Shown here: one piece after another, positions 13,624 through 36,994 of the stretch
How the letters are laid out: each line of letters begins with the position of its first letter
How positions within the stretch are numbered: the stretch's first letter is position 1
DNA from: an uncultured virus (IMG/VR IMGVR_UViG_3300016471_000568)
Taxonomy: Duplodnaviria > Heunggongvirae > Uroviricota > Caudoviricetes
DNA: 36,994 nt
IMG/VR virus record: IMGVR_UViG_3300016471_000568
Strand: one strand, 5' to 3'
Position numbers and translations under genes: made by a program
Notes under the pieces: model-generated
Seen by the model: the letters and a program-made list of their open reading frames with translations, nothing else
The model's database searches: none
Told to the model about the DNA's origin: nothing

Positions 13624-13737
13624 ATGGAAAAGATTGAAGTAACAATGCAGGAAATTTGGCAAGCAACGCGTCCAATTGTTCAACGCAGCAAAAAATCTTA
13701 CACTCGCAAGAAAAAACATAAAAAACAAGAAGAATAG
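13624..13737 (+). CDS. 37-aa basic peptide with ArfA-like C-terminus
   Basis: MEKIEVTMQEIWQATRPIVQRSKKSYTRKKKHKKQEE; promoter-like motif at 13588-13620. Confidence 0.55.
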   Translation: MEKIEVTMQEIWQATRPIVQRSKKSYTRKKKHKKQEE

Positions 13738-13738
13738 G

Positions 13739-13770
13739 TTGGATGTTGACTCTTTATTTCATATTATATA
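13739..13770 (+). promoter_or_regulatory. TTGGA-N13-TTTCATATTATATA promoter-like motif
   Basis: Recurs intergenically at 14993, 19379 and 30035, with variants at 13589, 24287, 25094 and 27737; TTG-to-TA spacing as in Bacteroidota -33/-7 promoters. Confidence 0.7.
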
Positions 13771-13786
13771 GAAAAATAAAGAGCAT

Positions 13787-14938
13787 ATGAAAAACAAAGT
13801 AATTGGAGTACCAGCCATAGTAAATGGCAAACAAGTTATTGTAGATTCAAGTGGCAATGATGTTAGTTCATTGTTTCGCTCAATCATGATTAAACATGCA
13901 CACGATAACAATGAAGCGTTAGTGTTTGATGAAGAAACGGGTCGATCTAAACGCATAAGTATATCAGACGTAGAATTAGAATTTGCACCAAGTAACCTAG
14001 AACCAGAAATGCCACAAACACCAACAGAAGCCGATCCGGTAATGCATCTAATCCAAAATGCACATAAAATTAAACCCGCAACGTTAGAAATGTCTGACAT
14101 CAAATGGAAGTATTTGGTACGGTCAGCAGTGCGTGGTAAAAACATCATGATGGTTGGTCCTGCAGGTTGTGGTAAGACACAAGCCGCAAAAGATCTTCCA
14201 GTAGCAACCAATCGTCCATTCTTTTATTTTAATTTGGGTGCAACTCAAGATCCACGCGCAACGCTTATTGGTAATACACATTTCAAAGATGGTCAGACAT
14301 CATTTGATGAATCTGCGTTTGTCAAGGCAATTCAAACAGAGAATGCCGTTGTATTGCTAGATGAGTTGTCCAGAGCTCACCCTGAAGCATGGAACATCTT
14401 AATGACAGTATTGGATGAGGGTCAAAGGTATCTGCGATTAGATGAAGATATCAATTCTCCTACCATCCGTGTTGCAGCAGGCGTATCATTTATTGCAACA
14501 GCAAACATTGGTACCGAATATACATCTACAAGAGTATTGGACCGAGCATTGATGGATCGATTTGAAATTATTGAGGTTGATATTCTTTCTTTGTCCCAAG
14601 AAGAAGATTTATTGACCAAACGATTCCCGACAGTATCCAAGGCATTGATTCATTCAGTAGCTGATATTGCAGATGCAACCCGCAAAGAATGGAGGTCAGA
14701 AGAAGGTAAATTGACTACCATGATATCCACTCGTATGACGGTGCGCGTATGTGAATTGTTGGCAGATGGGTTTTCTTTGTCAGAGGCAGCCGAAGTTGCA
14801 ATTCTTCCATTCTTTGATGCATCAGGTGGTACGGATTCTGAAAGAACCTTTGTTAAGCAAATCATTCAGAAACATATGGCAACTGAAATGAAAGACATTT
14901 TCAATACAGGAAATGATATAAAAGACTCGGTATTTTAA
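13787..14938 (+). CDS. MoxR/CbbQ-NorQ-like AAA+ ATPase
   Basis: Walker A GPAGCGKT, Walker B VLLDELSRA, ATANIG and LDRALMDRF. Confidence 0.9.
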   Translation: MKNKVIGVPAIVNGKQVIVDSSGNDVSSLFRSIMIKHAHDNNEALVFDEETGRSKRISISDVELEFAPSNLEPEMPQTPTEADPVMHLIQNAHKIKPATLEMSDIKWKYLVRSAVRGKNIMMVGPAGCGKTQAAKDLPVATNRPFFYFNLGATQDPRATLIGNTHFKDGQTSFDESAFVKAIQTENAVVLLDELSRAHPEAWNILMTVLDEGQRYLRLDEDINSPTIRVAAGVSFIATANIGTEYTSTRVLDRALMDRFEIIEVDILSLSQEEDLLTKRFPTVSKALIHSVADIADATRKEWRSEEGKLTTMISTRMTVRVCELLADGFSLSEAAEVAILPFFDASGGTDSERTFVKQIIQKHMATEMKDIFNTGNDIKDSVF

Positions 14939-14956
14939 TTTTTCATAGCTCGAAAG

Positions 14957-14982
14957 AGGCGGCAGAAATGTCGCCTTTTTTT
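14957..14982 (+). terminator. Rho-independent terminator
   Basis: AGGCGGCA-GAAA-TGTCGCCT followed by a T tract. Confidence 0.85.
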
Positions 14983-15038
14983 ACATTAATGGTTGGAAAC
15001 TGAATATTAATTTCATATTATATATAAAAATAAAGAGC

Positions 15039-17087: not shown

Positions 17088-17103
17088 ATCAATATAATAA
17101 CAT

Positions 17104-17343
17104 ATGAATTTATTAAAATCATTATATCGACATGGCGATGCAATGTACATTGTGATACAAAAAAAATCAATATCTCGGTTTGCAAAAAAAATAGGCGATG
17201 AACCTGATATGGACTATGTTAAATTGTACATGGAATGGATACAAGCAGACCACGTATTGCGATCGGATACGCATTTTTTATTTTGCGAAACCGTGCAAGA
17301 AACCGAATATGAAATGATTGATGAAACAAATAATATAAAATAA
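17104..17343 (+). CDS. Hypothetical protein
   Basis: ORF filling the gap between the vWA gene and thyA. Confidence 0.7.
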   Translation: MNLLKSLYRHGDAMYIVIQKKSISRFAKKIGDEPDMDYVKLYMEWIQADHVLRSDTHFLFCETVQETEYEMIDETNNIK

Positions 17344-17344
17344 T

Positions 17345-18472
17345 ATGGAACGAGATTACTTAAGACTGCTGCATGATGTTTTGCATAACGGCCAACCAAA
17401 GGATACTAGAAACGGAAAGACACGTTCAGTATTCGGAAGACAAATACGTCACAAGATGTCCGAGGGGTTTCCTTTACTCACAACCAAGAAGATGCCATTC
17501 CGCGTAATAGCAACCGAACTAATGTGGTTTCTTCGAGGTGATACAAACATCGAGTTCCTTGTTGATAATGATTGTCATATCTGGACTGGAGACGCTTACA
17601 AAAATTATTCAGAGAAGGTTGAATCCTGGGAACCTCATTTGAATAAGGAAATGTTTATCGATAGAATAAAAACGGATGTTATATTTGCTAAGAAGTGGGG
17701 TGAACTAGGCCCGATCTATGGTAAGCAATGGAGAAAGTGGCATACAGGTTGGGATGTAGTTGAAGATAAGAGTAAAGAGGCAGGCGTAAGAAGGATTGAG
17801 TACGGAATAGACCAAATCGCAAACCTAATCAATGACCTTAAAACAAATCCTGACTCAAGACGATTGATGGTTAATGCTTGGAATGTTGGAGAATTGGATT
17901 CAATGGTGCTTCCACCTTGTCATTATGGATTTCAAGTTTATACAAGAGAGTTGAGTTTGGAAGAGAAATGGGAACAATATGCTAAATCAGGTTTAAATAT
18001 AGAAATAAATGGAACACCATTAGAGTTAAAACATATGGGAACTCCATTCTATCCTAAGTCATTACCACAACGAGCAATCTCTTTAATGTGGAATCAACGT
18101 TCAGTAGACACATTTTTAGGTTTACCATTCAACATTGCTTCTTACGGCTTGTTATTAGAAATTATTGCAAAGGCAGTGAATATGGTTCCTGATGAATTGA
18201 TTGGTAACTTAGGTGATGTACATTTATATGAAAATCATATAGAACAGGCTCGTGAACAATTACGAAGAGAATTAATGCCATTACCAAAATTAAACATCAA
18301 TACAGAATGGTGGCCAACAGAAAGTGGTGAATGTGGTGAAGGTCCTTTAGATGCTGTAGCAGTGTTTAATGGGTTTACCAATGACAGCTTTTGTAAGTGT
18401 TTGTTGGAAGAAGATTTGCAATTGTATGACTACGATCCACACCCAACAATTAAAGCACCTTTATCAAATTAG
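17345..18472 (+). CDS. thyA: Thymidylate synthase
   Basis: GFPLLTTKK, LGPIYGKQWR, PDSRR, LPPCH, QRSVDTFLGLPFNIASY and DVHLYENH. Confidence 0.97.
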   Translation: MERDYLRLLHDVLHNGQPKDTRNGKTRSVFGRQIRHKMSEGFPLLTTKKMPFRVIATELMWFLRGDTNIEFLVDNDCHIWTGDAYKNYSEKVESWEPHLNKEMFIDRIKTDVIFAKKWGELGPIYGKQWRKWHTGWDVVEDKSKEAGVRRIEYGIDQIANLINDLKTNPDSRRLMVNAWNVGELDSMVLPPCHYGFQVYTRELSLEEKWEQYAKSGLNIEINGTPLELKHMGTPFYPKSLPQRAISLMWNQRSVDTFLGLPFNIASYGLLLEIIAKAVNMVPDELIGNLGDVHLYENHIEQAREQLRRELMPLPKLNINTEWWPTESGECGEGPLDAVAVFNGFTNDSFCKCLLEEDLQLYDYDPHPTIKAPLSN

Positions 18473-18474
18473 TT

Positions 18475-18723
18475 ATGAAAAAATATCTTATTATAGGACT
18501 TGCTGCATTCGTTTTAGAAACAGCATCTACCATGTATATTGCAACAGTAGCAGATCGTAGCCTTGCAATGATATTTTGGGCATTCATTGGACCGTTTTTA
18601 GGATTACCATTTGTGGGATACATGGTTGATTCTCAAACATGGCCAGATCGATTCAAAATGGCATTTGCTTCTAGTATAGGATATGTATTGGGTGCAATAA
18701 CAGTTTATGCAGGAAACATATGA
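18475..18723 (+). CDS. Small membrane protein
   Basis: Three hydrophobic segments. Confidence 0.7.
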   Translation: MKKYLIIGLAAFVLETASTMYIATVADRSLAMIFWAFIGPFLGLPFVGYMVDSQTWPDRFKMAFASSIGYVLGAITVYAGNI

Positions 18724-19372: not shown

Positions 19373-19420
19373 TTTTGGTTGGATATGTAATTGCAATTTC
19401 ATATTATATAGAAAAAGATT

Positions 19421-19597: not shown

Positions 19598-19669
19598 GGT
19601 CGGTTCATCTAGGGGTTAGGATACAAGATTTTCATTCTTGTCACACGGGTTCGAATCCCGTACCGACTA
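19598..19669 (+). tRNA. tRNA-Glu(UUC), CCA not encoded
   Basis: Acceptor GGTCGGT/ACCGACT, anticodon arm CAAGA-TTTTCAT-TCTTG, T arm ACGGG-TTCGAAT-CCCGT. Confidence 0.95.
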
Positions 19670-19806: not shown

Positions 19807-22245
19807 ATGAAACACGTTTACACTATTATCATGCTGTTGATTGGCATCATTGCTTATACTCAATATTGCCCAGCATTGGGACCAGACCAAATTCTTCCAT
19901 GCGGTGTTACTACCGCAACACTAACAGCAGACCTATCTCAATGTGCTCCGGGTAGTGGACCATATGGAACATCTGCTTACACAGTAACACAAATTCCTTA
20001 CGTACCGCAAGCCAACACGGGCGCATTGGTTGCATTGGGAGATGATGTTCAATCGGGTACATTTAACATTGGATTTACATTTTGTTTTTATGGATCAATA
20101 TACAATCAATTTCGAATCGGATCGAATGGTTGGATATCACTAGGTGCAGGCGTACAACCCGCAACATTTACATCACTAGCAATACCATCGGTTAATGCAG
20201 CTGTGCCAAAAAATTGCATCATGGCGCCATGGCAGGATTGGCATCCTGGAATCGGTGGTCAGGTGCGATACCAGGTTCAAGGTGTTGCTCCATGTAGGCG
20301 GTTGGTTGTAAGTTGGATTGGTGTACCAATGTACTCTTGTGTTAACTTGCAAGGTACATTTCATATTGTTATTTACGAAGCAACAAATGTAATTGAAACA
20401 TATATTGCTAATAAACCAAATTGTCCGCAATGGGCTGGTGGTACCGCTGTACACGGCATACATAATTTAACGGGCACTCAAGCAGTAACGGTTGCAGGTA
20501 GAAATTCACAACAATGGACTGCCGTTAATGATGCACGCAGATGGACTCCTGCAGGACCTCCGATCCCGCCATCACTTGTTTGGTATCAAGTAGGAAATCC
20601 AGTACCTATAGCTCAAGGAGTCAATCAAATAACCGTAACACCTCCTGCCGGCGGAGCATATTATACTTGTCATTTAGAATATGGTGCCTGCAATGCGGGT
20701 TGGTCTACGTGCAATGCAGGAGTTGGTTTAGGGCCAGACACCGTACAAGTTGTTCCAGGACCTCCAGTATTGAATCCACCTAACGTTGCAATCACTGATC
20801 CATTGTGCAACGCTTCATGTGACGGTACTGTAGTTGTTACACCGACCAACGGTACAGCTCCATACACATACAACTGGACTACGGGGCAAAACACAAACAC
20901 ACTATCAAACCTATGTGCCGGCACGTATAATGTGTTGATAACAGATGTCAACGGATGTACAGTAAATGCTTCGGCTACGCTAAACGATCCACCACTGCTG
21001 CAAGATCCGTTGATGACGTTTACTAATCCAGTGTGCGTTGGTGATTGTAACGGGACGGCAACGGCAACACCAACGGATGGAGTAGCTCCATACACGTATG
21101 CATGGAGTAATGCACAAATTACTCAAACAGCTACAATGCTATGTCAAGGTACGTATGCTGTAGTGGTGACTGATGCCAACGGCTGTACTGCTTCTAACAG
21201 TGTTACATTAACCGATCCGCCACCAGTTGTCACCGGTCCTATCACAGCATTTGATACTGTTTGTCTAGGCGAAACAGCGGCCATATATTTAGTGCCACCA
21301 CAGCCAGGTTACACATATACATGGACTTCATTGGGCAATATCACATCAGGTCAAGGTACAAATACCATTACGATTGATTGGAGTGCATTAAACGCAGGAT
21401 TAGTAAGCGGTGCTGTTCAAGTTGTTGCCACAAACCAAGTCGGATGCGTTAGTGCGCCGGTTAGTTTCGATGTATACGTATTAAATATCATACCAACTAT
21501 AGATGCTGTTGGTCCATTCTGTGTGTATGACGCAGATGTGACACTTACAGCTAATCCTGTAGGTGGAACATTTTCTGGATTAGGTGTGACGGGCAACCAA
21601 TTTGACCCAACTCAGGCAGTGGGCACAAATAATATATCATACACATATACGCAGAGTGGATGCGCGTTTACTTCATTTAGCACAATAACAGTGTATCCGC
21701 AACCCGTAATAACAAGCATTACTCCTGATGACGAGTTTATACAAATTTGCGAGGGAGATTCAGTTGCATCAACATACACTGCACAAGTGAATCTTGCTGG
21801 TACAACCGAGTGGACATTGCTAGGTAATACAACGCAATCCCCAACGCTTACTGCATCGTGGAGCTCGGCTGGAATTTATATTATACAAGCAACGCATACT
21901 GTGGATGGCTGTGTATCGCAGCCTGCAACAACAACAGTTACCGTATCTCGTTGTCCGCAATTACTATACTATGTACCAAATACATTTACACCCGATGGCA
22001 ATGAACACAATCAAACATGGCAACCTGTGTTTACTTCAGGCTTTGATCCTACAGAATTTCATTGCACGATATTCAATCGATGGGGTGAGATTATTTGGGA
22101 ATCGTATTGGCCTTATGTAGGTTGGGATGGAACGTATAATGCATTACCATGTGCAGACGGTGTATATACATACAAAATTTGGTTTGGTGATAAAAATACT
22201 GATGCAAAATATACCGTATCTGGCCACATTACATTGCTTCGTTGA
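19807..22245 (+). CDS. T9SS type-B CTD (gliding-motility-associated C-terminal domain) protein with SprB-like repeats
   Basis: Signal peptide; repeats P.C...CDG....GTAPYTY.W..G......LCAGTY.V..TD.NGC; C-terminal VPNTFTPDGNEHN..IFNRWGE..WDGTY..DGVY.Y. Confidence 0.9.
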   Translation: MKHVYTIIMLLIGIIAYTQYCPALGPDQILPCGVTTATLTADLSQCAPGSGPYGTSAYTVTQIPYVPQANTGALVALGDDVQSGTFNIGFTFCFYGSIYNQFRIGSNGWISLGAGVQPATFTSLAIPSVNAAVPKNCIMAPWQDWHPGIGGQVRYQVQGVAPCRRLVVSWIGVPMYSCVNLQGTFHIVIYEATNVIETYIANKPNCPQWAGGTAVHGIHNLTGTQAVTVAGRNSQQWTAVNDARRWTPAGPPIPPSLVWYQVGNPVPIAQGVNQITVTPPAGGAYYTCHLEYGACNAGWSTCNAGVGLGPDTVQVVPGPPVLNPPNVAITDPLCNASCDGTVVVTPTNGTAPYTYNWTTGQNTNTLSNLCAGTYNVLITDVNGCTVNASATLNDPPLLQDPLMTFTNPVCVGDCNGTATATPTDGVAPYTYAWSNAQITQTATMLCQGTYAVVVTDANGCTASNSVTLTDPPPVVTGPITAFDTVCLGETAAIYLVPPQPGYTYTWTSLGNITSGQGTNTITIDWSALNAGLVSGAVQVVATNQVGCVSAPVSFDVYVLNIIPTIDAVGPFCVYDADVTLTANPVGGTFSGLGVTGNQFDPTQAVGTNNISYTYTQSGCAFTSFSTITVYPQPVITSITPDDEFIQICEGDSVASTYTAQVNLAGTTEWTLLGNTTQSPTLTASWSSAGIYIIQATHTVDGCVSQPATTTVTVSRCPQLLYYVPNTFTPDGNEHNQTWQPVFTSGFDPTEFHCTIFNRWGEIIWESYWPYVGWDGTYNALPCADGVYTYKIWFGDKNTDAKYTVSGHITLLR

Positions 22246-22335: not shown

Positions 22336-24285
22336 ATGAAGAATTTTTTACTATCTGTTTTTATTTTTATTTCAAGTTTCGTTCTTTCACAATCCTGCAC
22401 ACACACGTTGCATATGACCGACACATGGGGTGATGGTTGGAATGGTAATCGTGCTTCAGTATCAGTCAATGGAATTACGGTTGTTTCCAACGTTACCTTA
22501 GGTGGTGGTTATGGACCCGCAACCGTAACATTCACAGCAGCTGCTGGGGCTACAATTCGTGTTTGGCGTTCCATTACTGGCTCCTATTCATACGAATGTC
22601 AGATTCGAGTAACTAGTAGTACGGGTGCTACAGTAATTGCATTACAAACACTACAAACCGGTGGATCATCATTTGGTGGTTCTATTGGTACAGCACAATG
22701 CAGTGGTGGTGGTGGAGGTGGCGGAGGTACACTAATTCCCTATAACGGTTCCAATAGTGTTGCTTGTGGAACAAACACAACGCTTTATGATCATGGAGGT
22801 CAGTTTGGAAGCTACTCTAACTATGCCAATGGATTCACAGTTTTGAATAATGCCGGTGGTGCCGTAATCTCAGTCAGTGGATCTACCTCAGGTGAGTCTT
22901 GTTGTGACTGGGTGCGAATCTACTCCGGAAGCGGAACGGGTGGTACAATACTTGGCACCTGGCAAATGGGTTCATTTGTTTCTTATACATCAGCACCGGG
23001 ACAAACTGTTACTGTGCAGTTTTATTCAGATGTTTCAATTACGGGTTCAGGTATTGCTTTGAATGTAACATACACGGGCAGTTGCGTACCTCCTCCACCT
23101 CCAACTAATCCTACATCAGTATCAGCCAGCTTTATGTCAGTGTGTAGTGGTTTCTCAACAACACTCACTGCAAACGGAGCAATAGGTACTGTGTACTGGT
23201 ATGCAGGTGGTTGTGGTTCTACTTACATTGGCACAGGAAATTCCATCTCTGTTGCTCCGACATCAACAACTACATACTATGCAAGAAACTATAACAACAA
23301 TCAATTCAGTGCAGGATGTGCAGCTGCAACAATCACCGTTAATCCGATGCCCTCTGTTAGTATTGCTCCGAGCATTAACCCAATATGCGCAGGATCATCT
23401 ACTCAACTTGTTAGCACGGTGACCGGATTGCCTGCAGGAGCTCCTATTACATACACATGGTCACCTAATGTTAATCTAACAAATACATCAGCACCTAGTC
23501 CGTGGGCATCACCCAATGCCACACAAAGCTATACACTCACCATTTCATCAAATGGATGCAATGCATCAACTAACACCAGTGTTACTGTCAATCCTAGTGT
23601 CCCAGCAGTAAGCAGTGTGACAGGAAACAACAATATCATTGCAGGTACCTCTGAGACATACTCGATTACACCGATAGCAGGAGTTACTTATGCTTGGTCA
23701 TACACACAAACAATGTCTGCTCCGTTGTGGACGAATATACCAAATTCCAATTCGCCAACCATAACATTCACATGGCCACAAACAACCACTAATGGTGCTG
23801 TGCGAGTTACAGTTTCAAATGCTGCCGGATGCAATACACAAACACAGCAATTTCTAATCATAACAATGGGCGCACTACCAATTGAATTGTTGTACTTTTC
23901 TGGTAAAAAAGTAGCTGCAGATAATTTAATATATTGGGCAACTGCTACTGAACACAATACAACTCACTTTGTAGTGGAAAAAAGCGAGAATGGAGTAACA
24001 TGGTTTGAACTAGCAACAGTTGCAGCCGCAGGCAATTCAACTCAAGAACTTCATTATGATGTTACAGATGCCGCAGTTAAACCTACGTACAATTATTACA
24101 GACTGACTCAGTATGACGTCGACGGAGCATATGAAGTGTTTGATCCTATAGTAATCAACAATAAATCAAGTATTCGAATAGTATCTCGGCGCACTAATTT
24201 GTTAGGACAGGATATTGATGAATTGGCAACGGGCATTGTTATCGAAATATATGAAAATGGTGAAGTCGTAAAAACAATCAAATAA
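22336..24285 (+). CDS. Secreted Bacteroidota-type surface protein with CUB-like and Ig-like domains and a short type-A-like CTD
   Basis: Signal peptide; DTWGDGWNG; LYDHGG..ESCCDWVRIY..FYSD.S..GSG; LPIELLYF..WATATEHN..YYRLTQYDVDG; terminal NLLGQ..G......ENG...K. Confidence 0.8.
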   Translation: MKNFLLSVFIFISSFVLSQSCTHTLHMTDTWGDGWNGNRASVSVNGITVVSNVTLGGGYGPATVTFTAAAGATIRVWRSITGSYSYECQIRVTSSTGATVIALQTLQTGGSSFGGSIGTAQCSGGGGGGGGTLIPYNGSNSVACGTNTTLYDHGGQFGSYSNYANGFTVLNNAGGAVISVSGSTSGESCCDWVRIYSGSGTGGTILGTWQMGSFVSYTSAPGQTVTVQFYSDVSITGSGIALNVTYTGSCVPPPPPTNPTSVSASFMSVCSGFSTTLTANGAIGTVYWYAGGCGSTYIGTGNSISVAPTSTTTYYARNYNNNQFSAGCAAATITVNPMPSVSIAPSINPICAGSSTQLVSTVTGLPAGAPITYTWSPNVNLTNTSAPSPWASPNATQSYTLTISSNGCNASTNTSVTVNPSVPAVSSVTGNNNIIAGTSETYSITPIAGVTYAWSYTQTMSAPLWTNIPNSNSPTITFTWPQTTTNGAVRVTVSNAAGCNTQTQQFLIITMGALPIELLYFSGKKVAADNLIYWATATEHNTTHFVVEKSENGVTWFELATVAAAGNSTQELHYDVTDAAVKPTYNYYRLTQYDVDGAYEVFDPIVINNKSSIRIVSRRTNLLGQDIDELATGIVIEIYENGEVVKTIK

Positions 24286-28916: not shown

Positions 28917-29161
28917 AACAAACAGCAGTAGAGTGGTTAGAAGATAAAATACAATCTGATATGACATTTATGGAGATACTTGGATTAATTAATCAAGCCA
29001 AAGAAATGGAGAAAGAGCAGTTTAATAAAGTTGCACAAAACAATGCAGATTTAAGTGAAGCATTGCAAGAGTTTCTACAAAAATATCCTGGCGTAACAAG
29101 TGGAGATTTACAAACATTTGTTTTGGGTTGGACTGCTGCTAAACTAAAGAATACACCGTAA
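28913..29161 (+). CDS. Hypothetical protein (MKQTAVEWL..QAKEMEKEQ type)
   Basis: N-terminal pattern recalled from Bacteroidota phages; ATGA overlap. Confidence 0.7.
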   Translation: MKQTAVEWLEDKIQSDMTFMEILGLINQAKEMEKEQFNKVAQNNADLSEALQEFLQKYPGVTSGDLQTFVLGWTAAKLKNTP

Positions 29162-29380
29162 GCATTGTTAAACTACGTAGTGTCCGTAGCAATGCAATGT
29201 TTACGGATACTGAAGAAGCAAGCATAGTATGCATATACGACGAAAGCATACGCATATATAAGAGATACGAGTATAAGTACATACGCATAAGCATATATAT
29301 ATAGTCCCCCCATTCCCTAGGTGACGTTACTTGGATGTGTAAATGAATATCAGAGTCTAGTATGGCTGCATCCCCCCGCG

Positions 29381-29980
29381 TATTTTTAGATGAATCACGT
29401 AATAGTTCTAGACGCATTGGGAGAATGAATGTGTGTTTTAGTGTCTAGTAGCATCCAGATAGATAGATTAGATATCTCCCTGCCGGTCCTACTTGTTTTC
29501 GCGGGGCATAGCATCTTTATTCCGGGTCAATGGATATCTAGACACCAAAAAGGCTGCAATGTTCTTAAACGAACTGTAAGAGCCGGGATACGGGGACACC
29601 TATTTTTAGATGAAGTGGCACCATCACCCCGAGTTATTTTTAGTCCGAGTGGCGTCTATTTTTAGATCGGGATGCCCTTATCTCCCCAGCGTATTTTTAG
29701 TCCGAGTGGAGTCTATTTTTAGATCATGATGCGCTCTATATATACAAGATCGAATACCAGCGTATTTTTAGTCCAATAACGTATTTTTAGAATGCATAAT
29801 GCGTGTCGTTACGTATAGTGATCTGAACAGTTTATTTTTAGAGCAATATCCGCTCCCTCCCAGCTATTTTTAGATCAACGTGCACGTATTTTTAGAGCAA
29901 AGGCCGGCGTATTTTTAGTCCGAGTGGTTTGATTTTTAGTCCGGGGGCTGCCTATTTTTAGACCAAAACCAGGTTTTAGA
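29381..29980 (+). repeat. Non-coding array of TATTTTTAG direct repeats
   Basis: Exact copies at 29381, 29601, 29635, 29657, 29692, 29714, 29763, 29782, 29833, 29865, 29887, 29910 and 29953; variants near 29931 and 29972. Confidence 0.9.
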
Positions 29981-30083
29981 CCCGGTTTCATTTGGTTTGC
30001 TAGCTATACAGCGTAAACTTTTTTTAACATGTGGTTGGATCTTTGCCGTTGATTTCATATTATATAAGTGTAAATAAGATGAT

Positions 30084-30167
30084 ATGATAACATTGATTAT
30101 AACGCTTGTGACGATGGCGGTGGCATTTGCCATTATGTATGCGGCGGATCGTAATTACGATGAATAG
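30084..30167 (+). CDS. 27-aa hydrophobic peptide
   Basis: MITLIITLVTMAVAFAIMYAADRNYDE, downstream of the promoter motif at 30035. Confidence 0.5.
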   Translation: MITLIITLVTMAVAFAIMYAADRNYDE

Positions 30168-30363
30168 ATTGGCGACGGGGTCCGGGATGCAAGTGCTCGT
30201 AACAGACACTCCCGGCGGATCGCAGTGATAGGATCATGATGTGATGATGTGAATAACATTGTAATGAGTTGATCCTATCCGGCATTGGGTATCATGACCG
30301 ACGGGTTTCTCTCTCTTATTCCCAGGCGTGTACCACGGGCGGCAGCAATGTCGCCCTTTTTTT
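30168..30363 (+). ncRNA. Putative structured RNA or long 3' UTR
   Basis: CCGGGA/TCCCGG stem, 10-bp GATAGGATCA/TGATCCTATC stem, CT-rich tract, then a terminator. Confidence 0.5.
30337..30363 (+). terminator. Rho-independent terminator
   Basis: GGGCGGCA-GCAA-TGTCGCCC plus T7; nearly identical to the terminator at 14957. Confidence 0.85.
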
Positions 30364-30467
30364 GTGTAATAATTTAATATTAATCTAAATTTAATCATTT
30401 CTTAATCTAAAATGCTTGGATCGCATTATTATTTTACTTATCTTTATATAAATTAAAAAGAGAGAAT

Positions 30468-30623
30468 ATGACAAATGTAGAGAAAAAAAGATTAGCAAAA
30501 ATTAGAAAAGAGTTTGCAGAATTAAAAGGTGCTGGATGCATTCCGGTTTTAATGCCATATGAGGAATATTTAGCAACATTTCCGGATCCGATAAAAACAA
30601 AAAAAGTTGCTAAAAAAGGGTAA
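30468..30623 (+). CDS. Hypothetical protein (51 aa)
   Basis: Follows a repeated promoter and AAGAGAG leader. Confidence 0.6.
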   Translation: MTNVEKKRLAKIRKEFAELKGAGCIPVLMPYEEYLATFPDPIKTKKVAKKG

Positions 30624-30673
30624 CCCTTTTGAAAAATTTGGTTATAATATAAAATAAATTAAAAAGAGAGAAT

Positions 30674-31078
30674 ATGACAAAAACAGCAAATTTAGCAGAT
30701 CAATTAAATGCACAAGCCAACGGCTTAATTATCGATTCGCAAGGCCAGAACGATGCATGTTATAACTTTTACGATTGGTTCTGCAAGGATTCCAGTTTAC
30801 GTAACAAGTCCTGGAAATTGATGAAGCAGGTAAAGACATTCTTAAAGCATAATCCGCAAATTGATTTATTGGAGCATTATGTATTTTTTAAGAACAATTG
30901 TCCGATGCGAGGTCCATTGTATGATGATTTTAGAATATGCAATATTGAGACGGGCAATGTAGTGTTTACAGTTATTCCCAAGTGTGGGCATAGTGGGTTA
31001 GCTGAAATTTGGGGACGTGAAAATGACTTTAAAGGTCCTATTAAGACAGCCAAAACTTTTAGCAAACTTTTTTCCTAA
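30674..31078 (+). CDS. Hypothetical phage protein
   Basis: YDWFCKDSSL..YVFFKNNCP...LYDDFRI pattern; AAGAGAG leader. Confidence 0.75.
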   Translation: MTKTANLADQLNAQANGLIIDSQGQNDACYNFYDWFCKDSSLRNKSWKLMKQVKTFLKHNPQIDLLEHYVFFKNNCPMRGPLYDDFRICNIETGNVVFTVIPKCGHSGLAEIWGRENDFKGPIKTAKTFSKLFS

Positions 31079-31138
31079 AATGCTTGGATCGCATTGATAT
31101 TTTTATTAAATTTATAGTATAATTAAAAAGAGAGAAAT

Positions 31139-31360
31139 ATGACAGTAGAAAAATTTGAAATGTTAGTTGAGAGTATTGGAATTAATAATAATACATTCAG
31201 TGGCCCAACCGGAGAACGCGATGGAGAGTGTTGTTTGTATTTGTATGAAATGGATGATTTAAAGAATTTAGCAAAACGATTTGATTTTAGATTTAAAATT
31301 ACGGAAGAGTTTATAGATGGCAATGGCGATGATTGTATAGTTGTAGAATTAGCAGTTTAA
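31139..31360 (+). CDS. Hypothetical acidic protein
   Basis: Follows a repeated promoter. Confidence 0.65.
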   Translation: MTVEKFEMLVESIGINNNTFSGPTGERDGECCLYLYEMDDLKNLAKRFDFRFKITEEFIDGNGDDCIVVELAV

Positions 31361-31442
31361 AAAAGTTGGAAAAAAGTTTGCGGATCCTTAGGTTCGCATT
31401 CTTTTTTTCCTTATCTTTAAGTATAATTAAAAAGAGAGATAA

Positions 31443-31607
31443 ATGGAAAAAATTAACATCAGCGACTTTATTGCCTGGATGGAGGAAAATGCAAATCATC
31501 CGATGCATGAATTGGCAATTAAAACCTTTAAAAAGATAAGACGCAATAAAGGTGAAATTAAAATTGAATGGAAGCATTTTGCAAAAGTTAACGGATTTGT
31601 AGTATAA
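31443..31607 (+). CDS. Hypothetical protein (54 aa)
   Basis: MEKINISDFIAWMEEN...; follows a repeated promoter. Confidence 0.6.
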   Translation: MEKINISDFIAWMEENANHPMHELAIKTFKKIRRNKGEIKIEWKHFAKVNGFVV

Positions 31608-31626
31608 ATTAAAAAATAAGAGAGTT

Positions 31627-31872
31627 ATGAAATTAGTTAGAAAAACAAGAGAGGCAGTAATTACCGAAACGTTTGAAATTGAATTAACAGCCGGCAATCG
31701 AGTATTTGTAAAAGATTATCTGGATGAAAGTGGTAAAGTAATTGACACAGAGTTCAGAGATGAAGATGGCAGAGACTTAAGTGACGATCCAGTCCTGTTT
31801 GAAGCAATAATTGAATTCTTAGAAGAATTAGAGCATGGATTTGATATTGTAGATCATGATGTACATGAATAA
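31627..31872 (+). CDS. Hypothetical acidic protein
   Basis: AATAAGAGAG leader. Confidence 0.65.
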   Translation: MKLVRKTREAVITETFEIELTAGNRVFVKDYLDESGKVIDTEFRDEDGRDLSDDPVLFEAIIEFLEELEHGFDIVDHDVHE

Positions 31873-31966
31873 AATTGTGAATAACTTTTCTGAAAAAAAG
31901 TTTCAGAAAAATTAGGATCGCATTGATTTTTTCCTTATCTTTAAGTATAATTAAAAACAAAGAGAT

Positions 31967-32152
31967 ATGGCAGTAGGCAAAAAGAATTCAGGATTTTTCA
32001 AGCAAGACGCAGTAGCAGCCCGCATGTTGGCAGATGCAAAACGTCCACAACAATTAAATGCAGCAGTAGTGCAAGCAATGAAACAAGCAGAGCGCAACCG
32101 CTTGTACCGAGAAGCTCAATTAGCAAAACAAAAGCCCCGTTTTATTAGATAA
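31967..32152 (+). CDS. Hypothetical basic protein
   Basis: Follows a repeated promoter. Confidence 0.65.
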   Translation: MAVGKKNSGFFKQDAVAARMLADAKRPQQLNAAVVQAMKQAERNRLYREAQLAKQKPRFIR

Positions 32153-32228
32153 AAGGTTAATCTAAATTTAATCTAAAAAGGGTAACCCTTTGCAGTTTTT
32201 TCGGTTTAATATAAAAAGAGAATAAGTT

Positions 32229-32966
32229 ATGAAAAGAAGAATTGTAGTTAGTAATGGTGCAATAGTAGGTGCCGAATCCACAAAGCGTTACGTTGCAGAA
32301 ATTAAAAAGGCTCGTCCCATTAGCAAAGAAGATGAAGCGGTTCTGATACAAAAGGCACAACAAGGTGATGTTGCAAGTCGCAATGTGATGATAGAAAGCA
32401 ATCTGCGGTTTGCGGTGCAAGTGGCTCGACAATATCAAGGCATGGGCTTAGAAATGGAGGACCTTATAGCATTTGCAAACGTCGGGTTGTTTGAGGCTGT
32501 GGATCGTTTTGACACCAGCAAGAATGTTAAATTCATTACGTTTGCGGTTTGGTATATCCGTGCCGAGTTGCAGAAGGCGCTCAATGATTTGTCCCGCACA
32601 GTTAGGATTCCATCACACCGAGTGTCTACCGAGGAGTACTCCACAAAGAGCATATCCACTCCGGTAGGTGAAGATGAGAACAAGGAAACATATGCGGATC
32701 GATACTTGCAAGCCGATGAGGTACGTAGCTCCAGGGACCTAGCAGATATGCGCTTTGACATTGATAGAGTGTTAGCCCAATTGAAGCCCAAGCAAGAAGA
32801 GGCATTGCGACGCAATTATGGCATTGGCTTTGAGTATGCACAGTGCATGGAGCAGATTGGCGAAGAGATGGGAGTTACAAATGAGCGTGCACGGCAATTG
32901 GTTCGTCAGGCCGAGGAGGCATTGTGCAAGCTACCAGGTGTTAAATTGCTTGAGCAATACCTTTAA
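32229..32966 (+). CDS. RNA polymerase sigma-70 family factor
   Basis: SNLRFAVQVARQYQ..DLIAFANVGLFEAVDRFD..KFITFAVWYIR (region 2); EQIGEEMGVTNERARQL (region 4 HTH). Confidence 0.92.
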   Translation: MKRRIVVSNGAIVGAESTKRYVAEIKKARPISKEDEAVLIQKAQQGDVASRNVMIESNLRFAVQVARQYQGMGLEMEDLIAFANVGLFEAVDRFDTSKNVKFITFAVWYIRAELQKALNDLSRTVRIPSHRVSTEEYSTKSISTPVGEDENKETYADRYLQADEVRSSRDLADMRFDIDRVLAQLKPKQEEALRRNYGIGFEYAQCMEQIGEEMGVTNERARQLVRQAEEALCKLPGVKLLEQYL

Positions 32967-33040
32967 AGGTTAATCTAAATTTAATCTGAAAAAGGGTAAC
33001 CCTTTGTGCAAAAAACGGTTTAATATAAAAAAGAGAGAAT

Positions 33041-33139
33041 ATGTCAAAAGTTGTGAAATTTGTTTTAGAGTTTATCATTGCAATGGGTATTGCATTATCA
33101 GCGGCATTCATCATTAAATTTGCTGCAGAAACTTTTTAA
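33041..33139 (+). CDS. 32-aa hydrophobic peptide
   Basis: AAGAGAG leader after a GGGTAACCC unit. Confidence 0.5.
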   Translation: MSKVVKFVLEFIIAMGIALSAAFIIKFAAETF

Positions 33140-33212
33140 AAAAAAAGTTTGCGAAATGCTTGGATCGCATTGATATTTTCTTTATCTTTAAGTATAATTA
33201 AAATTAATCATT

Positions 33213-33353
33213 ATGTATTACGGAAATTGTCAAACTATTAAAGAATATTTTTTCAGTGTAGTCTTAGGAATTATCTGCATTGCAATATCTTTAAGATTGT
33301 TAAGCTTAGCTTACAAGACCTATCAAATCGATCAAAGGAACAAGAAAGCGTAA
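33213..33353 (+). CDS. 46-aa TM peptide
   Basis: Follows a repeated promoter. Confidence 0.5.
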   Translation: MYYGNCQTIKEYFFSVVLGIICIAISLRLLSLAYKTYQIDQRNKKA

Positions 33354-33448
33354 TTCAATTGTGAATAACTTTACGTAAAAAAGTTGCAAAAAGATTAGGA
33401 TCGCATTGATATTTTCCTTATCTTTAAGTATAATAAAAAATAAGAGAT

Positions 33449-33700
33449 ATGAAAAAGTTCCCAGTTTACATCGCCCACAACCAATTCGGTTGGTCTAATC
33501 CATCTGCAATTAGTACTAGCGCTAATGAAGTTGTCTTTGATATGAATAAGATATCCGATGAACTTAAGGCAAAGGTATTTGGCCAAATTGGTATTGTAGA
33601 ATTAACCCGGGCCGAGATGATTGAGATATCAGATGCTCGAATCACTGTACGTAGAGTAGGTGCTAAAATGATGGCTAACTTAGGAATTAACAATAATTAA
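33449..33700 (+). CDS. Hypothetical protein
   Basis: Follows a repeated promoter. Confidence 0.65.
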   Translation: MKKFPVYIAHNQFGWSNPSAISTSANEVVFDMNKISDELKAKVFGQIGIVELTRAEMIEISDARITVRRVGAKMMANLGINNN

Positions 33701-33714
33701 AAAATAAGAGATAT

Positions 33715-33987
33715 ATGAACAAAATGCAAGAACAGTTAGCCGAGGACTTAATCCGGAACGTAGCAGCAGCATCTGATTCTGCCAGGGCCTTAATGCTTTT
33801 AACGGGTGATCCGGATTTTCAATTATTGGCAGCAATGCTTGAAATGATGGTGGTGGCCAAAGCCAAAGGTGACATAGAAGACTTTGCTCGTGCATGCACC
33901 GATGTTGCAGCTCAAAAGAATGCTGCCACAGCCGGGGGAAGTGCAATCGATTCAATCATTGTTAACTTTAACGGAATAGCCAATTAA
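33715..33987 (+). CDS. Hypothetical protein
   Basis: AATAAGAGAT leader. Confidence 0.65.
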   Translation: MNKMQEQLAEDLIRNVAAASDSARALMLLTGDPDFQLLAAMLEMMVVAKAKGDIEDFARACTDVAAQKNAATAGGSAIDSIIVNFNGIAN

Positions 33988-34085
33988 TCTAAGGTTAATC
34001 TAAATTTAATCATTTCTTAATCTAAAATGGTTGGATCGCATTGAAAAAGTCCTTATATTTATAGTATAATTAAAAAGAGAGAAAA

Positions 34086-34241
34086 ATGAAAAGAACAAAA
34101 AAAATCAGCGCAGAAAAAGTAGAAAGTGGAATTGTTAATGCATTCGGATTTGCATTGTTAGGAATCGTTGTATATGCAATTGCATTTATTGTTTACAAAT
34201 TGGCAACGGGCACGGCTGGTGTCGTAAGCATTGGAGTATGA
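34086..34241 (+). CDS. 51-aa TM peptide
   Basis: Follows a repeated promoter. Confidence 0.55.
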   Translation: MKRTKKISAEKVESGIVNAFGFALLGIVVYAIAFIVYKLATGTAGVVSIGV

Positions 34242-34317
34242 TAGGGGACATAATATATGCGAGCTTGTTGCTCAACCTGGTGCTAATCATGAAATTAATC
34301 AGTAAATCTAAAAAACA

Positions 34318-34467
34318 ATGACAATGACAAAAGAAGAAGTAAAAGAGCAGATCCAAATCGACCTATGCACTTACCTGGAATGTATTGGTTTTCAGGACAA
34401 TGGAGAATATGCTGAAATCTGCCAGATAGTGATAGACAACTTTAAGAAGCTTGACGAAGAAGGTTAA
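34318..34467 (+). CDS. Hypothetical protein (49 aa)
   Basis: MTMTKEEVKEQIQIDLCTYL..CQIVIDNFKKL; A-rich leader. Confidence 0.55.
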   Translation: MTMTKEEVKEQIQIDLCTYLECIGFQDNGEYAEICQIVIDNFKKLDEEG

Positions 34468-34578
34468 TCTAAATTTAATCATTTCTTAATCTAAAAGATT
34501 TGGATCGCATTGATATTTTCCTTATCTTTATGTATAGGAAATAAGGGAATAGTCCCACATAATTAAAAAAAAGAGAGT

Positions 34579-34965
34579 ATGAAAAAAGCAGAATTAGTAG
34601 CACAATTGGAGGTAGCAAAGGCGCTAACCTCAGTAGTATCAATCGACAGTGTAATTGCACTTATCCAGGAGTTGGAGGCGGAGCAAGTAGCCAAAACGGA
34701 ATCGCGTATAACCGCCAAATTGTTTACCCAGGTTGTAGACGTTATTGAATCGTCACTTAACAATATGCGCCATTCGGAGGCTGTCGATTTAAGCTCCGCG
34801 GAATTTGAATTGGATTGGAATAATTGCATTAACTTAACGGATGTATCCCTCGACACGGATTACATATACAATGAGATACGCGAGCAATTGGAAACTGCAA
34901 TTGACATTGTAGATGAGGAAGAAGCCAACGAGGCACAAATTGAAGCAGAGCAAACCGAGTCGTAA
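34579..34965 (+). CDS. Hypothetical acidic protein
   Basis: AAGAGAG leader; AEFELDWNN pattern. Confidence 0.7.
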   Translation: MKKAELVAQLEVAKALTSVVSIDSVIALIQELEAEQVAKTESRITAKLFTQVVDVIESSLNNMRHSEAVDLSSAEFELDWNNCINLTDVSLDTDYIYNEIREQLETAIDIVDEEEANEAQIEAEQTES

Positions 34966-35031
34966 TAAGATATATCTCTCAGTCCCCGGGCCAGCAGCGA
35001 TGTTGGCCCTTGTGGACGTAAAAAAGAGAGC

Positions 35032-35217
35032 ATGAAAAAATTAGCACGTTACAAAAACAATCTTCGCATAGACGGAGACCGAGTTATTTCTTACACCACC
35101 CACGTAGCAACCATTGATGGACCCTTTCTTCGGGTACATGGCAGGTGGAGCAAAACAACCACCAAGCATTGCAATTATGTAGCAACAGAATTGAAGCTTA
35201 AGCAAATAATGTCTTAA
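35032..35217 (+). CDS. Hypothetical phage protein (ISY.T.VA..WS.TT.KH type)
   Basis: Recognisable small-phage-protein pattern; AAGAGAG leader. Confidence 0.7.
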   Translation: MKKLARYKNNLRIDGDRVISYTTHVATIDGPFLRVHGRWSKTTTKHCNYVATELKLKQIMS

Positions 35218-35300
35218 TCTAAATTTAATCATTTCTTAATCTAAAATGCTAGGATCGCATTGAAAAATTCCTTATCTTTAAGTATAATTAAAAAGAGAGC

Positions 35301-35456
35301 ATGAAAAAAGAATTGAAAGAATTAGAAGCAAAGCTTAAGGCATTAAGAGAAGCCATGGAACGCTATGATGTATTCCAGCAAGATGATGAAATAGGCCTGG
35401 CATTAGCTGAGGTAGAAGCAGAATTAGCTAATTCAGACTCCGATAAAAAAGTTTAA
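35301..35456 (+). CDS. 51-aa coiled-coil peptide
   Basis: Follows a repeated promoter. Confidence 0.55.
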   Translation: MKKELKELEAKLKALREAMERYDVFQQDDEIGLALAEVEAELANSDSDKKV

Positions 35457-35529
35457 AAAAAGTTACCAAAAAGGTTGGATCGCATTGATTTTTTCCTTAT
35501 CTTTAAGTATAAATTAAAAAGAGAGATAT

Positions 35530-36480
35530 ATGATGAGTAATGTTTTTGAACCCGTTAGAATTAAAGGCAAGCTATTTGCTAAGAACACAACCACAGGCGT
35601 CATAGCGCCTAAAGACACCATCCGACACATCCAGCTGCTAAATGCTGAGAAGAACCGGGAAGTATTGATAGTATCCGCAACGGGCCGCGTTACCCGAGTA
35701 CCGGCAGTAGACGTAGGAGTTGCATTGACACCACAGCCAGCCGCCAAGTTATCCTTTATGCAAGCAAAGCAAACACAGGATCCGGAGGAGATGTTTAAGA
35801 ACATTGAACGACTCACCAAAATGGTAGGGCGTGGCATACAGCCGTCACTTGTTGTTACGGGAGGCGCAGGCACCGGCAAGACGCATTTGGTTAAAGAGAC
35901 ATTGACGTCCATGGGCCTCAAAGAATCCACAGACTTTGTGCACTTCAAGGGTCGTGCTACCGCTGCCGGCTTGTATATCACATTGTATGAGAATAGCTCC
36001 AAAGTCATTGTGTTGGATGATTGCGATAGCGTGTTTAAGGATGATGATGCAGTGAATATCCTCAAAGCGGCTTTGGATAGCTATGACACCCGCAAGATAT
36101 CTTATATCAGCACCAAGAGCCTCAAAGACGAATTTGGCAATGAGGTCCCGCGCCATTTTGAATTTACAGGTCGCATCATCTTTATCTCTAACATTGATCA
36201 ATCACGTTTGGATGAAGCAATTCGTTCACGTAGCTTTGTAAGTGATGTTGCCCTGACAACGGACCAAATGTTTACCCGCATGGGTCAATTGATGACGTCC
36301 ATGGAGCGAAGCATCCCGATGACGGCTAAGGAGCAGGCATTGCAGTTGATGCAGGAATTGGATGCAGAGTATGACGGCGTAGAGATCAACCTGCGCAGCT
36401 TTATCAAAGCAGCACGCATATGTGCAATGGGCTTTGAAAATCCCAAAATGATGATAGCAGAACAAATCATCCCGGCATAA
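35530..36480 (+). CDS. P-loop (AAA-like) ATPase
   Basis: Walker A GGAGTGKT, Walker B VIVLDDCD, NILKAALDS, IIFISN and AIRSRS. Confidence 0.85.
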   Translation: MMSNVFEPVRIKGKLFAKNTTTGVIAPKDTIRHIQLLNAEKNREVLIVSATGRVTRVPAVDVGVALTPQPAAKLSFMQAKQTQDPEEMFKNIERLTKMVGRGIQPSLVVTGGAGTGKTHLVKETLTSMGLKESTDFVHFKGRATAAGLYITLYENSSKVIVLDDCDSVFKDDDAVNILKAALDSYDTRKISYISTKSLKDEFGNEVPRHFEFTGRIIFISNIDQSRLDEAIRSRSFVSDVALTTDQMFTRMGQLMTSMERSIPMTAKEQALQLMQELDAEYDGVEINLRSFIKAARICAMGFENPKMMIAEQIIPA

Positions 36481-36615
36481 GATATATCTCTCGGCGGATC
36501 CGGCACTAGAAATGGTGTCGGATTTCTGCTGAAAAAAAGTTTAAAAAAAGTTACCAAAAGATTAGGATCCTATCGATTTATTCCTTATCTTTATATAAAT
36601 TAAAAAGAGAGAGAT

Positions 36616-36741
36616 ATGACAAAGAGACAAAACCAAGAGAGAATGTTGCATTTTGTATGCGGAGTAGATTTGGCAACGTTAGCAGCAATGACGGATGCGC
36701 AAGTTGAAGCATTGTACCGAGAGCACATAAGCAAAATGTAA
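36616..36741 (+). CDS. Hypothetical protein (41 aa)
   Basis: Follows a repeated promoter variant. Confidence 0.5.
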   Translation: MTKRQNQERMLHFVCGVDLATLAAMTDAQVEALYREHISKM

Positions 36742-36789
36742 ACGGCACCATCCAGCAAGTAACCAAGTAATAACGTAAAAAGAGAGAAT

Positions 36790-36984
36790 ATGACAAAAGT
36801 AAAAGAGTTCGTAACGGCAGAGTTAAAAGGATTAGAGAAAGGCTTCATCAGAACGCCAGAGTCAAGAGAGGCATTAGAAGCATTCGCAAAAGCAAATCAA
36901 GGTAGCATGGACATCCTGCTAATGCAAATGGCAATCCAATTCGGAGCTAAGCTGGCATTAGAAAATGTACAAGTAATAACGTAA
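36790..36984 (+). CDS. Hypothetical protein
   Basis: AAGAGAG leader; flanked by a 25-bp direct repeat. Confidence 0.65.
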   Translation: MTKVKEFVTAELKGLEKGFIRTPESREALEAFAKANQGSMDILLMQMAIQFGAKLALENVQVIT

Positions 36985-36994
36985 AAAGAGAGAA

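Follow-up and report, generated by a model that had tools for sequence, protein, structure and literature searches.

What does the short unit at positions 30033-30363 specify, placed as it is at the head of an array of small early genes in an uncultured virus (Caudoviricetes; IMG/VR record IMGVR_UViG_3300016471_000568)? A sequence-only reading of the window, by which we mean the whole stretch of 36,994 nucleotides (nt) that was analysed, had described here a self-contained unit made up of a promoter, a hydrophobic open reading frame (ORF) for 27 amino acids (aa), a folded RNA, a GGG-loop-CCC hairpin and a terminator, and had proposed that the loop shuts off the early genes in trans or that the transcript is a type I toxin-like mRNA. 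Each of these elements was found again where that reading had placed it. We put at roughly one in two the probability that the unit encodes a dual-function, trans-acting anti-leader RNA with a build like that of RNAIII.

The early genes have leaders of two kinds, AAAAAGAGAGAnnAUG and AAAAAAUAAGAGAnAUG, and most have a host-like promoter unit. In nearly all of them a purine box lies 2-4 nt 5' of the start codon, and AAUAAGAGAGAGAAA, the reverse complement of the loop, covers both forms of the box, AAGAGAGA and AAUAAGAGA. The five starts singled out in the sequence-only reading (30468, 30674, 31139, 31627 and 36616) are all ATG and are preceded by AAGAGAGA or AATAAGAGAG. AAGAGAGA matched 12 times in the window against 0.76 expected, a count reached by none of 100 shuffles, with 11 copies on the + strand, all within 30458-36993, and a sole copy on the - strand (30310-30317) that is the loop itself. 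On the + strand the 7-mer CTCTCTT likewise occurs once, in the loop, compared to 19 copies of AAGAGAG. The mean predicted energy of the loop duplex was -9.4 kcal/mol for 19 early starts and -3.1 kcal/mol for 31 window genes outside this set (Mann-Whitney p = 2e-6), and at 17 of the 19 early starts the duplex reached -6.6 kcal/mol or better, spanning about -12 to -3 from the start codon, consistent with the pairing to phage leaders that had been proposed. AAGAGAGA is not complementary to the CCUCC core of the anti-Shine-Dalgarno (anti-SD) sequence.

The loop was complementary to the adjacent early leaders in all 22 versions of the RNA tested (the window and 21 of its 23 relatives, which carry L numbers below). 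In these 21 relatives duplex energies were -6.7 to -10.9 kcal/mol downstream versus -1.3 to -5.9 kcal/mol upstream, and 0-15 of 200 shuffles did as well as the real loop. At the array head the first unit is the RNA gene, oriented as the array is, and in the relatives this gene directly precedes such an array wherever downstream sequence is available. One complete relative of 159,586 bp, with all its genes on one strand, has 11 same-strand copies of AAGAGAGA, all at 11,866-18,589 and directly past its RNA gene at ~11.2-11.5 kb, and the loop is the sole same-strand complement of AAGAGAGA in that genome. The clade of L127 and L128, with CUCUUAUCU loops, is also the only one with some AGAUAAGAG leaders, a minority there, which is suggestive at most.

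Loci with a related 134-aa early protein (L117, L122, L125, L131, L132 and L145) have different leader boxes, for example CATAACCAATTAAC, GTAATTAAAAC, AAATAAAGGTT and AAAGGAGA, and every lineage seems to have its own early-leader 'address'. Around L117, L122, L125, L131, L145 and others, no RNA complementary to the locus's own box was found within ~8 kb, and the array heads may lie outside these loci.

Within the unit of the window (Table 1), the promoter-like sequence is made of TTGGAT (30035-30040), a 17-nt spacer and TATTAT (30058-30063) inside the conserved GGTTGGA-N13-TTTCATATTATATA. The predicted 27-aa peptide has an N-terminal transmembrane-like stretch of ~20 aa and then a polar tail, and the region between its ORF and the CU-loop hairpin is GC-rich. 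The core hairpin (30182-30215) can be written CCGGG / (A)GUG-C-UC[loop]GA-CAC(U) / CCCGG, and the CU-loop hairpin reads as DNA GGG (30303-30305), loop TTTCTCTCTCTTATT (30306-30320) and CCC (30321-30323). Eight pairs, six of them G-C, make up the terminator stem (30337-30356), which is followed by T7. A short unit bounded by its own promoter-like unit and an intrinsic terminator is what would be looked for in a small RNA (sRNA) gene.

Table 1. Features of the RNA gene and of the array that it precedes, with positions in the window.
Feature	Position	Strand	Basis
Promoter-like unit GGTTGGA-N13-TTTCATATTATATA ('M class')	30033-30066	+	Readable as TTGGAT, 17 nt, TATTAT
27-codon ORF, small hydrophobic peptide MITLIITLVTMAVAFAIMYAADRNYDE (27 aa)	30084-30167	+	ORF listing
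Conserved core: CGACGGGGU, hairpin, CGGAUCG	30173-30222	+	Alignment of 18 distinct sequences
Second hairpin GAUAGGAUCA...UGAUCCUAUC	30227-30279	+	Perfect 10-nt inverted repeat
Irregular long stem closed by GGG/CCC, displaying the 15-nt loop UUUCUCUCUCUUAUU	30288-30334	+	Sequence
Intrinsic terminator GGGCGGC-AGCAAU-GUCGCCC, then U7	30337-30363	+	Terminator search
Early array of small genes, the presumed target	30416-36994	+	Promoter unit and shared leader

After removal of duplicates, 24 distinct versions of the RNA were obtained, all in contigs of uncultured phages or lake metagenomes and 250-370 nt long; this number is a lower bound, as the gap in the core pattern used for metagenomes (N{4,6}) was too narrow and missed forms with a 3-nt spacer. 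The exact 21-mer hairpin was found again in eight viral contigs. Searches with conserved-core patterns gave true members at 6/6 loci in one case and at 11/11 metagenome loci in another, a loose core pattern in viral contigs gave 16 true members among 85 loci, the remaining 69 being dropped as GC-rich chance matches, and three further versions came from searching with the 134-aa early protein encoded nearby. Species-representative genomes of bacteria and archaea, 185,579 in all, gave no match to the core pattern in two scans, the first with the too narrow gap, and the unit DNA matched nothing in 50,697 phage records beyond chance 19-24-mers at E values up to 10. When the 134-aa early protein was compared to cultured phages by tblastn, only distant proteins in unrelated phages were returned. 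The nearest virus record (G001) has no match to positions 29000-31200 of the window, and as a 34%-complete fragment this record is uninformative.

Every version ends in one or two CU-loop hairpins, with loops of 12-16 nt, and seven relatives have two. Short-form relatives keep a separate terminator with a UUCG loop, while in long and double-hairpin forms the U run follows the CU-loop hairpin directly, so that this hairpin is itself the terminator. The long forms (n = 4) have no ORF and carry in its place a structured 5' domain of 200-250 nt, and in some relatives larger, unrelated ORFs precede the RNA domain (64 aa in L106, 72 aa in L127).

The CUCUCUU core of the loop is invariant in the 24 distinct hairpins, which carry it on 16 distinct stems. 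A MAFFT alignment put the CU-hairpin stems out of register, so a single consensus structure was rejected and stems were measured per sequence. Contiguous stem length averaged 8.6 bp for native hairpins versus 4.2 bp when 5' and 3' flanks were cross-combined; G-U pairs occur in 10 of the 16 stem types, and counting Watson-Crick pairs alone shortens 9 of the 16 to at most 4 bp. Because the varied stems keep pairing, often via G-U, the comparison indicates that the CU hairpin is probably a + strand RNA structure rather than a DNA palindrome. The core hairpin was paired in 98% of cells across 18 distinct sequences, with compensatory changes at 2 of 11 pairs (9 cells) and a covariation score that none of 500 shuffles reached, and shifting the partner by 1-3 columns lowered pairing to 23-54%. 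It is conserved mostly as plain sequence, 8 of the 11 pairs never varying. The second hairpin also covaries in relatives, with stems GGCGGGAUCG/CGAUCCCGUC and GGUAGGAUCA/UGAUCCUACC, and in most of them contains an internal AACCACA...AACAC module that is lost from the window copy.

A sequestered loop would have spoken against the earlier proposal. The loop core is predicted to be unpaired with a probability of 0.95 in the window transcript and of 0.52-1.0 across 17 transcripts, compared to 0.39-0.46 transcript-wide, which gives the conserved, predicted-accessible seed, complementary to conserved target sites, that is looked for in an sRNA. Some relatives carry a second anti-leader element, CAU(A/G)UCUCUC, which is antisense to GAGAGAUAUG (leader plus start codon) and sits just 5' of the core or of the hairpins. 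It was present in six of the seven long- and third-form relatives examined (L002, L007, L009, L073, L127 and L128, not L124).

Two other roles for the folded RNA were considered and set aside. As a riboswitch or leader attenuator it would have to act on a next gene that has a complete promoter unit of its own 57 nt past the terminator, and the freely varying stems and invariant loop of the terminator hairpins are the opposite of an expression platform. Alternatively, the UUCUCUCU of the loop, which is parallel to AAGAGAGA, could form a pyrimidine-motif triplex with promoter-proximal DNA; we judged this unlikely because the long-form element carries a Watson-Crick antisense match into the start codon.

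Some early leaders are longer. One early gene (34500-34578) has an internal hairpin (GGGAATAGTCCC) between its promoter and the AAGAGAG box, and similar long leaders with AAUAAGAGAUAUAAACCAC and then a second box occur in L120, L127 and L128. The AACCAC of these long leaders is present in the same sense in the module of the RNA's second hairpin.

The promoter-like unit sets the RNA gene apart from the genes it precedes. The exact 14-mer TTTCATATTATATA has four copies in the window, all on the + strand (13757, 15011, 19397 and 30053), and the composite M-class pattern matched four times there and three times in the complete relative, always forward and never in reverse. Of the 21 relatives examined, 19 have an M-class unit before the RNA gene, as TTTCATAT(T/A)ATAT or a variant differing by 1-3 bases, and its conservation, together with the terminator, bears out the earlier description of the unit as self-contained. 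The other copies in the window lie before an AAA_5/MoxR-like ATPase gene (13737-13770, gene at 13787), before a gene for a 682-aa protein (14991-15024, gene at 15039) and upstream of the tRNA-Glu region (19377-19410, tRNA at 19598); the units before the ATPase and 682-aa genes recur in the complete relative, and the tRNA unit does not. On this distribution, the RNA gene appears to belong to a small M-class regulon of 3-4 units that is separate from the early class.

Early promoter units consist of T(T/A)GGATC, N and TAnnTTTA, then ~15-20 nt to the AUG, and this composite was found 11 times forward and 0 times reverse in the window, 10 of them within 30416-36994. With a TTG 20 nt upstream (TTG-N20-TAnnTTTA), it is close to the Bacteroidetes sigma-A consensus, given as TAnnTTTG at -7 and TTTG near -33 in the available portion of PMC7366714. 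A gene for a phage sigma factor (Pfam regions 2 and 4) lies within the early array at 32229-32966, and we infer that this factor reads the RNA promoter, so that the RNA would appear after the early proteins.

Within the RNA unit CGGCGGATCG is present twice (30142-30151 and 30213-30222), and each early promoter unit begins with GGATCG as well (TTGGATCGCATTGA). The GGATCGCAGTGATA of the window RNA resembles the GGATCGCATTGATA of the early promoters, which may reflect chance, common ancestry or a site for a DNA-binding protein. Upstream units of a third kind, with a hairpin AAAGGGTAACCCTTT followed by (C)GGTT(T/A)TAATATAAAA, are found at 30608-30655, 32177-32215 and 32990-33030, before the genes at 30674, 32229 (the sigma factor) and 33041, and may each be a terminator plus a distinct promoter.

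Two lake RNA libraries from two studies contain contigs over the RNA domain of a relative (211 nt in X16, 224 nt in X19), the X16 contig beginning where the small ORF ends and continuing into the RNA. Word depth in X16 was 11.4 for the RNA-domain contig versus 3.4-3.8 for contigs of neighbouring genes, contig depth being a measure that cannot rank genes and in which uncovered stretches carry no meaning. These contigs give a weak hint of transcription.

From this anatomy, conservation and complementarity we infer how the unit could work. An RNA of ~290 nt would be transcribed from its own M-class promoter, unlike the host-like promoters of the early genes, with its 5' end expected ~5-8 nt past TATTATATA and its 3' end at the U run. 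The 5' part would encode the 27-aa membrane peptide, and the 3' part would fold into the core hairpin, the second hairpin and the long stem that holds UUUCUCUCUCUUAUU open, followed by the terminator. The loop would then pair in trans with the purine box (AAGAGAGA or AAUAAGAGA) of nearly every adjacent early gene and cover the ribosome landing site, lowering the translation, and perhaps the stability, of all early mRNAs together. According to the available portions of PMC6847099 and PMC7797042, SD sequences are not used by ribosomes of Bacteroidia, and a private leader box could serve as an address in a phylum whose ribosomes ignore them. We extend this more tentatively, at somewhat less than even odds, to a scheme in which the box is a class address and the RNA its eraser: the purine box would tag every early mRNA, and one RNA with 1-3 anti-boxes would silence the early class at a phase switch, its promoter perhaps being read by the phage sigma factor and many members adding a membrane peptide. 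The anti-box copies are the CU loops, one of them possibly the terminator loop, plus the anti-start-codon element of the long forms.

Several observations weigh against the anti-leader reading. The fold energy of the whole window transcript is ordinary (z = -0.44), and therefore the evidence for structure rests on comparison with relatives and not on energy; the relatives are not independent of each other. Covariation of loop and leader, which would be the strongest comparative sign of pairing, is missing, as both are nearly invariant among family members. Two of the 19 early starts (33213 and 34318) have no box. Among composition-matched shuffled loops 24 of 1000 (2.4%) equalled the real loop, with a shuffled mean of -6.1 kcal/mol, and fairly good pairing to AG-rich leaders is to be expected of any CU-rich loop. 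Early genes next to the RNA are covered by the X16 and X19 libraries too, and X19 extends to the non-coding repeat zone; assembled contigs show no ends, strand or level and may derive from DNA carry-over. The M class is a small regulon and not a general middle or late class, and the timing is argued from promoter classes only. Finally, the pairing could stabilise or activate its targets instead of repressing them.

The effect of composition would be expected if the RNA served to bind protein, as a sponge or scaffold whose CU loops and core (CGACGGGGUCCGGGA...CCCGGCGGAUCG) are recognised by a protein of host or phage, for example ribosomal protein S1 or an RRM-type RNA-binding protein such as RbpB, with leader complementarity as a by-product. 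Such a role would fit the conservation of the core as sequence, the energy that shuffled loops reach on early leaders from composition alone and the multiple copies of the hairpin loop, which are typical of protein sponges; RbpB is described as binding sRNAs in Bacteroides in the part of PMC11697453 that was available. We consider it improbable, though the strongest of the competing explanations, as the loop is in register with both AAUAAGAGA and AAGAGAGA and beats 97.6% of composition-matched loops, the CAUAUCUCUC of the long forms carries the antisense match into the start codon, the box complement is found nowhere else on the coding strand of the 159.6-kb genome, and no candidate protein was identified.

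A positive or protective effect, through masking of a nuclease site, a longer life of early mRNAs or mRNA sorting, shares all of the pairing evidence, which fits either direction of the effect. The RNA gene also heads the early array in the same orientation. This is slightly less probable again in our estimate: the leaders are A/G-rich and unstructured and need no opening, and the duplex spans -12 to -3, plus the AUG in long forms, a kind of pairing that blocks initiation in RNAIII and FopS according to the portions available of PMC2837412 and PMC11697453.

If the module instead acted in cis, the 3' part would control how the peptide mRNA is translated or how stable it is, in the manner of a type I toxin, and the peptide (a membrane toxin, a holin-like protein or an exclusion factor) would be the product. 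A small hydrophobic peptide ORF, as type I toxin-antitoxin systems have, is kept in 16 of the 24 versions. In 13 short-form versions, the window included, the ORF is single and 26-29 codons long, its product would have ~20 hydrophobic residues before a polar tail, and the stop codon lies 7-17 nt 5' of the RNA core; three further relatives have two such ORFs. AAUAAGA in the ORF leader complements the loop's 3' part, and the models of L033 and L107 have the ORF-leader region paired to the first CU loop, at a summed pair probability of 0.8-0.96. In 10 of 12 cases, though, intramolecular pairing of loop and start was at most 0.35, and the energy of the loop on its own peptide start was inconsistent (-2.1 to -11.0 kcal/mol) and partly due to bases possibly upstream of the transcription start. 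The RNA domain also occurs without the small ORF, in the four ORF-less long forms and in L106 and L127 with their unrelated ORFs.

The predicted peptide itself diverges quickly yet retains its length and character: 19 of 84 nt differ between the ORFs of the window and L110, the RNA domains of which are almost identical, and substitutions are mostly hydrophobic-for-hydrophobic, with differences summing to 20/14/29 by codon position, fewest at the second. It matched no significant family in Pfam or PHROGs (best E = 0.0042, not past the cut-off). Promoter-like matches on the minus strand near the unit are weak (9/12 positions), and no antisense partner was identified. The toxin-like mRNA of the sequence-only reading thus found little support, with no antitoxin partner, weak pairing to its own start and an RNA that persists without the ORF in long forms, and we hold it to be unlikely, below the two explanations above.

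We very much doubt a role in DNA or in stopping transcription, as an insulator or terminator block or as part of an origin or packaging site beside the TATTTTTAG zone: the unit does follow the 13-copy TATTTTTAG zone directly, lies between two transcription blocks, carries one or two terminators and shares GGATC-containing sequences with the early promoters, but 10 of the 16 stem types have G-U pairs, which would read as A-C mismatches on the opposite strand; conservation peaks in the loop and not in the variable stems, unlike in terminators, where a conserved loop is not the norm; and the promoter unit is dedicated and conserved.

The anti-leader RNA was also compared with described regulators. 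Searched against Rfam at gathering thresholds, the whole window gave only the tRNA at 19598-19669; positions 29100-30500 gave chance-level fragments of microRNA and ribosomal RNA at E values up to 10, and the long-form relative L009 gave best E values of 0.056-6.7, all far under gathering. No Rfam family matched the RNA, including C4, RNAIII, FopS-type Bacteroides sRNAs and riboswitches, and because no covariance model matched, the RNA is, as judged from its sequence, a member of none of the RNAIII, c4 and FopS families.

Hairpin 14 of RNAIII, which we take to be its terminator, resembles in this respect the loop hairpin of the phage family, which can be the terminator as well. RNAIII of Staphylococcus aureus both encodes a peptide (delta-hemolysin) and acts in trans, its pyrimidine-rich loops binding the ribosome-binding sites of several mRNAs and stopping translation, as given in the portion of PMC2837412 at hand. 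Its loops are C-rich (UCCC) and directed at SD sequences, and it is 514 nt long, whereas the phage RNA of 250-370 nt has a (CU)n loop directed at a phage-private purine box. The phage RNA is also phage-encoded and targets the phage's own early genes in a host without SD use, and the two have no sequence or Rfam relation.

The c4 RNA of P1 and P7 is likewise phage-encoded and trans-acting, with loop complements around the ribosome-binding site that block translation (PMC12197685, partial text). It controls one operon (antirepressor, immunity) in temperate phages, in contrast to the one loop that matches ~17 leaders in a large phage here. Closest in host are FopS and GibS of Bacteroides thetaiotaomicron, multi-target sRNAs of the same phylum that repress translation without SD sequences by pairing to translation initiation regions; FopS is chromosomal and ~65-70 nt long, with a single-stranded 5' seed followed by a terminator (both from the accessible part of PMC11697453). 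The phage RNA, in contrast, is phage-borne and 250-370 nt long, with its seed in a hairpin loop and an upstream peptide ORF in many versions. In phage T4, the endoribonuclease RegB and the repressor protein RegA recognise a short motif in many early mRNA initiation regions and silence the class. The class-silencing logic would be the same here, with an RNA loop and not a protein as the recogniser.

Known phage-encoded base-pairing RNAs mostly control one gene or host mRNAs, and our literature searches, which included the accessible part of the review PMC12197685, found no description of a phage RNA directed at a shared early leader. If true, the anti-leader reading would give an RNA-based version of the protein-driven early shut-off of T4, one RNA set against a whole early class, and would show how translational control finds its targets in Bacteroidota, which make no use of the SD sequence that sRNAs usually bind. 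The family could also serve as a test system: its loop has 15 nt, its box 8 nt, there are ~20 natural targets, and nature supplies variants that have 1-3 anti-leader modules, some with the peptide and some lacking it. For annotating the early regions of uncultured freshwater phages, the promoter classes together with the leader boxes offer a practical key.

The source of the window is reflected in its gene content. All long ORFs lie on the + strand, and the genes include lysis proteins, thymidylate synthase, tRNA-Glu (the only hit of a tRNA/tmRNA scan of the window, at 19598), SprB-repeat proteins with CHU_C type IX secretion signals and a sigma-70-family protein. The sole nucleotide match of the window to cultured phages is in thyA, 149 nt at 91% identity to Flavobacterium phages of 160 kb, and the sequencing runs that contain window DNA are freshwater or lake metagenomes. 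Gene content, the thyA match and these runs therefore show that the window is a piece of a ~160-kb uncultured phage whose host is a freshwater member of the Bacteroidota. No lysogeny genes were found among the window ORFs scanned. The two large SprB-repeat proteins (19807-22245 and 22336-24285) also have PKD-like and Ig-like domains and a CHU_C type IX sorting domain, and one of them has a Hoc-like PHROG match; SprB and CHU_C features are typical of Bacteroidota surface proteins, which makes them a host marker that is unusual in a phage.

Upstream of the RNA gene, TATTTTTAG is concentrated in the non-coding region 29381-29961, which has 13 of the 14 copies in the window (1.0 expected). All are on the + strand and irregularly spaced at ~19-220 nt, mostly 19-57, and a matching repeat zone lies directly upstream of the RNA gene in relatives. 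This zone may offer arrayed sites to a DNA-binding protein, act as an origin or in packaging, or encode a repeat-rich transcript. Between the zone and the RNA promoter, a conserved GTTTGC-TAGCTATACA-GCGTAAAC followed by T7 (29995-30025) resembles a terminator with one G-U pair, and would end transcription through the repeats just before the RNA promoter; CTAGCTATACAG(C/A)G is retained in most relatives. On the other side of the RNA gene, TTAATCTAAA has exactly 11 copies (30380-35245), all on the + strand and usually paired 11 or 22 nt apart, and the pairs stand just upstream of early promoters or of AAAGGGTAACCCTTT hairpins. Read on the opposite strand, TTAATCTAAA approximates the TTTTAGAT repeat found in the upstream zone, and one protein may bind both in opposite orientations.

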